A DNA stretch of 63,068 nt, counting the filler, from Reclinomonas americana ATCC 50394 (taxonomy: Eukaryota), in assembly GCA_048213135.1 (NCBI GenBank). It is 8 parts of 3 records of this genome, joined end to end, with 100 filler letters (N's around TTAATTAATTAA, not from the genome) between each part and the next. Parts side by side here need not be neighbours in the genome. Positions count along the whole stretch, not along the records: positions 1 to 10,385 come from PS015405.1; 7 more parts are not named here. One strand, written 5' to 3'. The translations under genes were made by a program, and so were the position numbers. Under the pieces are notes generated by a model. It made no database searches and was not told the DNA's origin. It saw only the letters and a list, made by a program, of their open reading frames with translations. How positions within the stretch are numbered: the stretch's first letter is position 1; each line of letters opens with the position of its first letter. Positions 4,310 through 7,300 of the stretch are shown here, in pieces.

Positions 4310-7300
4310 ATGGTGCGTGTCTCCTCACTCACACACTCTCTGCCATACACTCGCTCACTTTCCCTGTGTCTCCGTGCAGTCCTTCCCTGTCCACTTTTGC
4401 CTCGCCGATGGCACCTCACGCATCACGGTGCCCGATGTCACTGGCGACACGCGACTGTGCGACCTTGTGCAACGCGGCTTGCACCTGCTGGGGGTCGCTG
4501 CAGATGCGCGTGTGCGTGTGCGGTCGGATGTGGTGCTGCGGGCGTCAGATGAATCCACACTGCGAGACCTTGGCATCACGGCGGAGACCACGCTGACGGT
4601 GGATGTGGAGGGCAGCGGGTGCGTGGTCGTGTGTTTCTGAGAGGAGAGAGAGTTGTGCGACTTATCTGCGTGACGTGTGTGTGAGAAGAGCGAATAACTA
4701 CATGCTTCTGCAAGATGCGATGGGCATTGTGAGAGACGCACTGGCAGCCAGACTCCGCGCAGCGTTGCCTGCGTTCTGTCGCCTTCATCCCACCATGCGT
4801 ATCGATGAAGCGTGGTGCTGCAGGACTGTCCGAGAGATTCCTGCGCGGTTGGTGGTGGTGTTGCTCTTCTCCATCCACTTGCTTCGTTCTCATCCACAAG
4901 AATGTGTGCTCTCGCAGCTACAAACCCGGCGGCAAGCACGTGTTCTTGCAACACAATGAGCAACAAGCTCATGTGCTCACATGGAAGGCAGCATTCGATG
5001 CAGATCCCACCAGCACACCGCAGTGCCCGCCATTCGACTTGACGGCACTCTGCGCGATCCTGGTGAATGGTGGATTCGTGGAGGATGATGGCAGCTCCCA
5101 TTTCGTCCTTGCCTCGGATGCAGAGGTCAGTGCTCTGCTCTCTTTTCGCCTTGCTTGCCGTGATGCTCACCACGTGTGCAGCGTCGAGCGGTGGCGAAGT
5201 TGGGTAAAATACGCAACACTGTTGTTGGCCACCGCGATCAACCTATCGCTGTCGCCGATGAAGTCACCGACCTGCTCGGCGATGGTGTTGTTGAGGGGCG
5301 TTTGGTGACGGCCATCTCATTGCTTCATCTCGACGATGCCCCCCTCACCCACTTTCTTGCATTGTTGGAAGACATTCGCACAAGTGAGTCTGATGTGAAT
5401 CTCTTCGTCTTGTGTCCACCTAAAGAATGCTCTCTCTTGCAGGACGACATCATATTTCTGATGCGGAGTTCGCTGCGTTGCTTGAGGGCTATAGTGAGCG
5501 CGAATCGTCAGCATTCCGCGAGGACGAGAGTTTGCGCAAGACACTGGAGATGTACGTACCGCTGACGACAAAAGCCGGTGGCGTGTCACGAGACCTGCTG
5601 TCGGAAGTAGACGCATTCGTTGCCGACGACAATCGCGCACGCGTCTTGTTGTTCCTCGGCAACAGTGGAGCTGGCAAGACAACTGCAATGACGGTGATGG
5701 CGGATCACGCATGGCGAGCATATCGAGAAGGGCGCAGTCGGCGACTGCCCGTGCGTGTGCCGTTGTCGGCGTTGCGTGACGTGGAGCACTGCATGCTGGA
5801 AGAAGTGCTTCCGGTGACGTGGCCGGAGGCTGCAGTGCAGCGCGTCAAGCAGATGCCACTGTTGTTGCTATTGGATGGGTATGACGAGCTGTACCGTGAG
5901 ATCAATCTGATGGACACTGCGCAGGTTTGCTTCATCCCTCCTCATCTCATTCTTGTCTGTCTCATGTGACGGATTCGTGACTGATTGGTGTGCGAACAGC
6001 TTGGAGGGTGTACCGATGTCAAAGTGATTGTGACATGTCGTGCAGATTATGCAGCAGGCATGGGTTTGGGTGGAACCGATTACCGTCGCTTTTTCGTTCC
6101 CACGAACGGCAGTGGTCGTGCGGACTTGCAATTGTTGGTGGAGCGCACGGTGGAGCCATTCAACGACGCTCAAATTGAAGAGTACCTCCAGCACTTTGTC
6201 ACGCATCAACCTGCAGAGTGGCGGACAGTGGACGAGTATCGTCTTGCGCTGCGTGGCATGCACGGAGTGCAACTGTTGATTACAAATCCGTTCATGCTGT
6301 CGGTGGTGGTGCAAGTGTTGCCGCTGTTGGTGGCGAGTGCAATGAGGGAGCGACCGACTCGGCGCGATGTGTTTGACCGATTCATTCGTCAGTGGATTGC
6401 GAGAGAGCAGGAGAGACAGACGCGTCTTGGCGCGGATCGTGTGCCGCGTGAGGATTTGTGTCTCGCGTTCTGTGAGGGACTGGCACGATTGATGCACGAG
6501 GGAAATATGGTACGTGTGAAGGTGGCTGAGAGCCAAGAAGTTGACCATGCGGAAGACGACTTCGGTGGCGCGTTGTCAACAGCCGGGCGCCAAGAACCGA
6601 AACAAGAGGGACCGTTCGACAAGTTCTTCGGTTATAAAAACCAGCACGTGCGAGTGTGCTGTCCGATTGTGCGACGATATGGGACGGATCAGTGGGGATT
6701 CGTGCATCTGTCGTTGTTGGAGCACTGTGTGGCGCGACATGTGTTTGCGTGGGAGACGTGGGATGAGGTGGAGAGGCGGTTGACGATAGAAGATGTGCAG
6801 CAGCATGTGTTGGCAGTGCGACTGCTGAATGATCGACCATCGTTGGTGGAGCAGATCGCCGAGGTGGTGCGACGATCTCCTGCGTTGCAAGCGAGACTGT
6901 GGGAGGTGATTGAGATGTCACGAGAGGTGGATGAGGAGCGAGTGGTAACAGCATCGGCGAATGCAGCAACGGTCTTGTGTGTGGCGCAAGTGTCGTTCAG
7001 TGGGCGGGATCTGTCGGGTGTGCGAGTGAGGGGTGCGGATTTGAGGGATGCGGTGATGCACAGGACGTTGTGGAGGGAAGCTGATTTGCGAGGGGTGAAT
7101 GTGTGCATGGCGTATGCGAGGAAAGCGGATTTCAGGGGGGCGGATGTGAGGCGTGTAAAGTGGCCGAGAAAGCCGATTGTAGGCCATGCTGGTAGGGTTT
7201 CTTCTGTTGCCGTCATTTACGATGCTAAGTTCAGTGTCTTCATAGTGAGTGGCAGTTGGGACAAGACTGTACGAGTGTGGTCGCTGGCAAGTGGGAAAGA

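Follow-up and report, generated by a model that had tools for sequence, protein, structure and literature searches.

A putative, highly divergent HEPN-like domain preceding NACHT in a three-paralogue family of Reclinomonas americana

What kind of effector, if any, precedes the nucleotide-binding module of a NACHT-WD40 protein encoded by Reclinomonas americana ATCC 50394? The gene lies in a stretch of 63,068 nucleotides joined from eight parts of three records of GenBank assembly GCA_048213135.1 (hereafter the window, along which all positions are counted), of which positions 1-10,385 derive from record PS015405.1. Between a small N-terminal module and NACHT, three small exons (4689..5383, plus strand) encode a helical domain of 189 residues. 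A preliminary description, made from the sequence alone, had proposed that this domain is a cryptic RNase effector of the Swt1/DZIP3-like HEPN type, whose activating dimerization could be provided by oligomerization of the STAND protein. The resemblance to HEPN, as judged from sequence comparison, appears weak but specific, and the domain is probably a very divergent one that lies nearest to the Swt1/DZIP3 side of the superfamily.

The window consists of nuclear DNA of a eukaryote, in which introns are short and of the GT-AG type. Each of the three exons (4689-4847, 4918-5125, and 5182-5383) has an AG acceptor and a GT donor, and together they maintain one open frame. Adding 4380-4618 on the 5′ side and 5443-5924 on the 3′ side gives 430 open codons in the same frame, and the phase is kept into a long last exon that runs from 6000 to a stop at 8750. 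The 430-codon translation starts with ANNYMLLQDAMGIVRDAL and includes PPFDLTALCAILVNG and AVAKLGKIRNTVVGH internally. The 189 residues of the middle exons begin with ANNYMLLQDAMGIV, exon 2 contributing FDLTALCAILVNG and exon 3 contributing KIRNTVVGH, whose RNTVVGH is encoded by 5212-5232 (plus strand), exactly where the preliminary description had placed the motif. Two further proposals made there are also borne out: the three small exons as one spliced unit, by the GT-AG sites, the open frame and conservation in three copies, and a helical domain N-terminal to a STAND NTPase, by the gene model and the architecture. The protein order is a beta-grasp-like module, the helical domain, NACHT, pentapeptide repeats, and WD40 repeats, encoded as follows in this gene (copy 1):

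4380-4618, plus strand: putative beta-grasp-like (ubiquitin-like) N-terminal module of 79 residues, delimited by AG/GT sites and an open frame.
4689-4847, plus strand: HEPN-like exon 1, domain residues 1-53, with predicted helix 1 and the first part of helix 2.
4918-5125, plus strand: HEPN-like exon 2, with the FDLTALCAILVNG block.
5182-5383, plus strand: HEPN-like exon 3, with R133-N134-x4-H139, then a G/P-containing loop and the C-terminal helices.
5443-5924, plus strand: linker and first half of the NACHT NTPase, with Walker A GNSGAGKT and Walker B LLLLDGYDE (identified with Pfam).
6000-8750, plus strand: last exon, with the remainder of NACHT, pentapeptide repeats, and about 11 WD40 repeats (array at 7241-8548), from frame continuity and Pfam.

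A tblastn search of the whole window with the spliced product returns three complete paralogues, one on the plus strand (copy 1) and two on the minus strand (copies 2 and 3); copy 3 is additional to those in the preliminary description. All three fall within 32 kb of the joined stretch, with filler between copy 1 and copies 2 and 3, so that adjacency in the genome is not implied. The grouping is as expected of a lineage-specific expansion. The corresponding features of the other two copies are:

29742-29978, minus strand: beta-grasp-like exon of copy 2.
29509-29667, 29233-29440, and 28974-29175 (within 28974-29667), minus strand: HEPN-like exons of copy 2.
25503-28906, minus strand: NACHT exon of copy 2 (28430-28906; 88% identity over the NACHT exon by tblastn) and a long open last exon with WD40 repeats (in the open reading frame 25503-28376).
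36268-36504, minus strand: beta-grasp-like exon of copy 3.
36031-36189, 35765-35972, and 35505-35706 (within 35505-36189), minus strand: HEPN-like exons of copy 3.
32040-35440, minus strand: NACHT exon of copy 3 (from about 34963) and a long open last exon (in the open reading frame 32040-34910), from tblastn.

All splice dinucleotides are conserved in the three copies, and identity between copies is 0.88-0.89 in exons versus 0.72-0.78 in introns. Alignment gaps within the gene are confined to introns, the gap columns labeled as exon being the ends of aligned stretches. The ratio of nonsynonymous to synonymous substitution rates (dN/dS) across the three HEPN-like exons is 0.20-0.32, which indicates purifying selection; the upstream beta-grasp-like exon is the most constrained (0.15-0.20) and exon 3 the least (0.35-0.47). 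Because of this evidence from splice sites, exon versus intron identity and dN/dS, the exon model lies far beyond chance, and a real and constrained family of three copies is well supported by the sequence comparison. Could the exons nevertheless belong to a pseudogene family or to a wrong gene model, rather than to a functional coding unit? The exon model derives from sequence alone, and in the alignment of the three copies the sequence upstream of about 4250 is not conserved, so that neither the start codon nor a possible first exon is placed. However, the frames are open through all exons in the three copies, the GT-AG sites are conserved, dN/dS is 0.2-0.3, and indels are confined to introns, which makes this alternative extremely improbable.

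Some further observations concern the surroundings of the copies. Copy 1 is closely preceded by a long (GA)n/(CT)n microsatellite (3090-3340), and the alignment between copies places CA-rich microsatellites upstream of copies 2 and 3. The copy 2 intron between HEPN-like exons 2 and 3 (29176-29232, minus strand) is 57 nucleotides long, in frame and stop-free; its retention would add 19 residues just before the motif helix and would not truncate the protein. The counterpart introns of copies 1 and 3 are out of frame. At 15407-15502 (minus strand) there is a weak tblastn match to the NACHT exon (E 0.002, 46% over 35 residues), which may be what is left of a decayed fourth copy.

The HEPN motif is Rx4-6H, in which the residue following R is N, D, or H (PMC3710099; this paper and PMC9646362 are cited throughout from extracts of their text). 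All three copies satisfy this rule, with RNTVVGH in copy 1, RNSVVGH in copy 2 (29125-29145, minus strand, in agreement with the preliminary description) and RHAVVGH in copy 3 (exon 35505-35706, minus strand), the wider context being DIRNSVVGH in copy 2 and DIRHAVVGH in copy 3. The residue after R is N, N, and H, respectively, and the change from N to H in copy 3 falls within the permitted residues (PMC3710099). Both R and H are present in all three paralogues, without variation in exon 3, where the protein changes fastest. A second Rx6H, at domain residue 53, is regarded as meaningless. Immediately after the motif comes a Gly/Pro-containing stretch, the residues following H being RDQP. The motif has been placed where a helix ends and a loop begins (PMC3710099), and a Gly/Pro stretch at this point is suggestive of the expected end of helix 3. 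In a low-confidence AlphaFold2 model (pLDDT 42), helix 86-103 ends within the motif and H105 lies in a loop.

Members of the HEPN superfamily also have a conserved acidic residue in helix 2, often as Ex3[KR]. Exon 1 contains E/D-x3-R (EIPAR, DIPAR) as well as other acidic residues, with no confident placement of helix 2. This lack of a confident position for the acidic residue would suit a HEPN-derived but catalytically inert module that binds RNA or has a regulatory role, the output coming from another part of the protein or from a partner. Such a role has been proposed for eukaryotic Swt1 and for some nematode HEPN domains, inactive versions that possibly bind RNA are known (PMC3710099), and the Rx5H spacing seen here is less common than Rx4H (131 of 202) in the DZIP3 set of the pearl oyster (PMC9646362). 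Inactive versions typically lose R, the following polar residue and H (PMC3710099), whereas these are kept in all three paralogues. An inert module therefore appears improbable.

The spliced three-copy alignment was compared by hhalign with bacterial PF18731 (HEPN_Swt1) domains from prokaryote genomes. Against 11 such sequences the score is 21.3 (P 0.011), which is reached by 1 of 200 column shuffles, and the reversed sequence scores 16.2. Against 41 sequences the score is 18.2 (P 0.024), and a colinear alignment of 131 columns extends from helix 1 in exon 1, which is aligned to helix 1 of bacterial Swt1-like HEPN, to the last helices of exon 3. The highest score, 24.6 (P 0.003, probability 10.5%), is obtained with 16 domains from HEPN+DUF499 proteins, a post hoc figure that is the best of four subgroups, the other three scoring 10.7-12.9. 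All of these runs match R, N, and H to the RN..AH of PF18731, and three further blocks are aligned: FD..L..IL, then AER..V..L before the motif, and GRL.TAIS after it. The FDLTALCAILVNG block of exon 2 pairs with the conserved [WL]D..LL block of Swt1-like HEPN. A separate hhalign run with input contiguous in the window gives P 0.012.

In a first null set of natural sequences, none of 215 sequence windows reaches 24.6 (maximum 19.8). In a second, 2 of 243 do so (54.6 and 67.6, the next highest being 24.4), and these two have the look of genuine relatives encoded in the sequence flanking the fetched loci. With the same query, a panel of other families scores 13.1 (Abi_2), 12.5 (PF05168 HEPN) and 14.5 (HepT-like, PF01934), and non-HEPN four-helix bundles score 12.7 (Ferritin) and 10.2 (DinB_2); all five families are at background compared with the Swt1-like signal. 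The bacterial HEPN_Swt1 domains that most resemble the query are all N-terminal in open frames of about 430-1200 residues. Two of these frames were checked and both run on into a DUF499 ATPase, giving an N-terminal HEPN before a P-loop NTPase.

A protein-language-model atlas points in the same direction. The query, the exon 2+3 construct, is the contiguous translation of copy 2, comprising exon 2, the 19 intron-coded residues and exon 3. Its top clusters, from molluscs and cnidarians, score 0.92 with 172-186 of 256 shared features and carry PF18738 HEPN_DZIP3 (11-38% of members) or PF15112 DUF4559. PF18731 HEPN_Swt1 appears in a bacterial cluster at 0.89, and a common family or clan is found in 8 of the 10 best matches having a family. 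High scores count as weak evidence when the recognition value is under 2300; with a value of 1830, the atlas result is only a lead. The atlas and hhalign share no machinery, and their signals, each weak, converge on the Swt1/DZIP3 part of the HEPN superfamily. Taking these sequence comparisons together, we consider it likely that the 189-residue domain is a HEPN-superfamily member of some kind. Two scans gave nothing further: among metagenome contigs there were 599 pattern matches, of which 0 were confirmed, and one bacterial genome and 14 control genomes contained no match to PF18738.

Several results weigh against this assignment. Because 84% of shuffles of the 189-residue domain (n = 20,000) carry Rx4-6H, and 23% carry R[NDH]x3-5H, the motif by itself is at chance level and has no weight; moreover, exon 3, which bears it, has the highest dN/dS (0.35-0.47). 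The constructs submitted to remote tools were all without exon 1, and the exon 2+3 construct included the 19 intron-coded residues. With Pfam at E ≤ 10, neither exons 1, 2, and 3 nor the exon 2+3 construct match HEPN or any other credible family. This holds for HEPN_DZIP3 (PF18738, threshold 27 bits) and HEPN_Swt1 (PF18731, threshold 27.5 bits), so that the HMMER comparison with Swt1-like and DZIP3-like profiles recommended in the preliminary description came out negative. The domain constructs have no match in PADLOC, in NCBIfam or with the PDB sequence profile. Word-based searches find no homologue for exon 3 among longer proteins or for the exon 2+3 construct among proteins of near length, and phmmer against 1.84 billion representatives yields a sole match, a tandem-repeat protein of 1739 residues, which is spurious, its score being gathered over 24 stretches. 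The AlphaFold2 model of the exon 2+3 construct (run with the exons of the other copies) is all-helical by DSSP, with pLDDT 42 and pTM 0.34. The hhalign probabilities are 2-10.5% overall, the highest score came from a subgroup chosen after the fact, the atlas recognition value is below its mark, and an atlas search with exon 2 alone gives no usable match.

Could the domain then be a lineage-specific helical adaptor or oligomerization module, unrelated to HEPN, in which RNxxxxH occurs by chance and signaling depends on contacts between proteins, as it does for death-fold or other NLR domains at the N-terminus? The absence of HMM, PDB, and phmmer matches, a motif at chance level, hhalign probabilities of at most 10.5%, the low atlas recognition value together with the failure of exon 2 alone, and a fold that is not predictable (pLDDT 42) would all be consistent with such a module. 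However, two methods both indicate Swt1/DZIP3-type HEPN and no other family, the multi-block alignment is colinear with R, N, and H on catalytic positions, and neither R nor H varies in the exon whose protein sequence changes fastest. An unrelated adaptor thus seems rather unlikely. The Swt1/DZIP3-like HEPN assignment made in the preliminary description is partly supported, by language-model neighbors and by hhalign to PF18731; against it, no curated hidden Markov model (HMM) gives a match, the hhalign probabilities are 2-10%, and the motif carries no weight of its own.

How might a HEPN domain in this position work? In RNase L and Ire1, a HEPN RNase (KEN) is activated when an upstream module gathers two or more copies. 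The switch logic proposed here is the same, but in those two proteins a kinase or pseudokinase module drives the KEN domain, which is circularly permuted and lies at the C-terminus, whereas here the domain is N-terminal and NACHT would be the driver. A ligand would be sensed by the repeat region (WD40 and pentapeptide repeats), releasing the NACHT module, which would then oligomerize. Oligomerization would bring the N-terminal HEPN domains together so that they pair, and the paired Rx5H domains would form a composite, metal-independent RNase site from R133, N/H134, and H139. Cutting of cellular or invader RNA by this site could lead to growth arrest, cell death or antiviral defense. By analogy with STAND receptors and HEPN RNases, which serve as models, and following PMC3710099 for the part that R and H play in catalysis, we infer the HEPN fold, RNase activity, oligomerization-driven activation and an immune role. 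The full reading, an active HEPN RNase effector switched on by NACHT oligomerization, is on balance slightly favored.

NACHT (PF05729) is matched in exon 5443-5924 at E 1.1e-7 (32.2 bits versus a cut-off of 26.7), and both Walker A and Walker B are present. In the last exon, Pfam detects pentapeptide repeats (E 1.5e-6) and WD40 repeats (PF00400, E 4e-119, 11 stretches). The WD40 array at 7241-8548 consists of 10.4 tandem units of 126 nucleotides with 75% nucleotide match. Internal similarity this high has been described for fungal NACHT-WD40 recognition genes, whose repeats are reshuffled. Matching WD40 regions are also present in copies 2 and 3. A search with the region C-terminal in NACHT gave a best match of 27% identity (a EukProt record) with a different N-terminus; the other matches are mostly pentapeptide-repeat proteins, and none provides a usable relative of the N-terminal domain.

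The 79-residue exon is the most conserved N-terminal part, copies 2 and 3 being 91-94% identical to copy 1, and it has no Pfam match. AlphaFold2 predicts the order beta-beta-alpha-beta-alpha-beta (pLDDT 61), compatible with the beta-beta-alpha-beta-beta fold of ubiquitin-like domains, and the weak Foldseek rows for this model are nearly all beta-grasp proteins, with SUMO, ubiquitin, CIDE-N, and PB1 at the top, all with E ≥ 0.85 and a root-mean-square deviation of 8-9 Å. On this model, the module is beta-grasp-like, an assignment that is unproven. Such a module may recruit partners or keep the effector inactive.

How does this arrangement compare with known systems? The HEPN-NACHT design is already known in animals, and HEPN-STAND in bacteria. 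According to PMC3710099, the DZIP3/hRUL138 HEPN family is fused to NACHT and expanded in Nematostella, oyster and Capsaspora, and HEPN of the CXorf38 family is joined to NACHT in both cephalochordates and cnidarians. The same paper lists bacterial proteins that combine an N-terminal HEPN with a STAND NTPase. In the pearl oyster, more than 50 NACHT proteins have an N-terminal DZIP3-type HEPN, some with WD40, and Rx4-6H is kept in 194 of 202 DZIP3-type domains (PMC9646362). An N-terminal HEPN before NACHT, with LRR, TPR, or WD40 behind, occurs in pearl oyster, cnidarians and Capsaspora (PMC3710099, PMC9646362). The proteins described here resemble the DZIP3-NACHT proteins (PF18738) of bivalves, cnidarians and Capsaspora in having an N-terminal RN...H domain before NACHT and C-terminal repeats, which may include WD40, in forming local multi-copy clusters, read as innate-immune RNase effectors, and in having atlas neighbors that carry PF18738. 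They differ in the absence of a PF18738 match, in the Rx5H spacing and in the additional beta-grasp-like module and pentapeptide repeats.

The bacterial Swt1-like HEPN (PF18731) proteins with DUF499, of the Ava_2192 type, likewise place an N-terminal HEPN before a P-loop ATPase, and they have been described as linked to restriction-modification systems (PMC3710099). Theirs is the sole family with measurable profile similarity to the domain (24.6, P 0.003, with R, N, and H aligned), albeit far below the family threshold. In contrast to the proteins described here, they have Rx4H (RN..AH) and DUF499 instead of NACHT, and they are prokaryotic. CXorf38/DUF4559 proteins, which in animals are fused to NACHT, DEATH, or dsRBD, share a Swt1-clade HEPN combined with NACHT, and clusters carrying PF15112 are among the nearest atlas neighbors. 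However, a zinc ribbon is inserted in their HEPN (PMC3710099), with none evident here, and the domain has no HMM match. Fungal HET-E/NWD-type and cyanobacterial NACHT-WD40 STAND proteins also have NACHT followed by highly similar tandem WD40 repeats and occur as several paralogues, but their N-terminal effectors are HET and others rather than HEPN. Pentapeptide repeats stand between NACHT and WD40 here, as they do in two of the matches to the NACHT C-terminal region.

What sets the present domain apart is its extreme divergence (it falls in neither Pfam family by that family's own test), the Rx5H spacing and the beta-grasp-like and pentapeptide parts. Descriptions of HEPN-NACHT and HEPN-STAND fusions go back to 2013, and we know of no biochemical test of one. 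A literature search covering main texts and one supplementary file of PMC3710099 found no description of this domain combination, and the host seems to be missing from the protein collections that were searched. The most far-reaching interpretation, which is speculative and, in our view, unlikely as it stands, is that of an unrecognized eukaryotic HEPN family, nearer to the bacterial Ava_2192/DUF499 type than to animal DZIP3. Its recruitment as RNase effector of a beta-grasp-HEPN-NACHT-pentapeptide-WD40 receptor would then have taken place independently and outside animals, the HEPN-NLR design having been either invented separately or inherited from bacteria.

The rest of the window contains other genes. 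Tail to tail with copy 1 lies an open frame that is rich in leucine-rich repeats of LRR_6 type (ribonuclease-inhibitor-like) (9146-10384, minus strand; Pfam LRR_6 E 8.8e-19). A Prp19-type WD40 gene (50790-51617, minus strand), a metallophosphoesterase (17998-18807, plus strand), a branch-2 histidine phosphatase between copies 2 and 3 (31049-31984, plus strand), and an Nse-type zinc finger (53131-53997, minus strand) are ordinary eukaryotic genes. Paired runs of 44 N around 12 bases, at 10386-10485, 20961-21060, 37054-37153, 40707-40806, 45130-45229, 49560-49659, and 54823-54922, are the filler joints and not genome sequence. There are many longer N runs besides, with 6007 N in all.

If the reading of these proteins as HEPN-armed receptors is true, no new class of mechanism is opened. 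RNase-armed, NLR-like receptors would nonetheless reach a lineage that is absent from the large public protein sets searched, with an effector domain so diverged that standard annotation overlooks HEPN. The family would then add a data point on how frequently HEPN RNases are coupled to STAND proteins, and its three paralogues would offer a compact system in which to test whether oligomerization activates HEPN.

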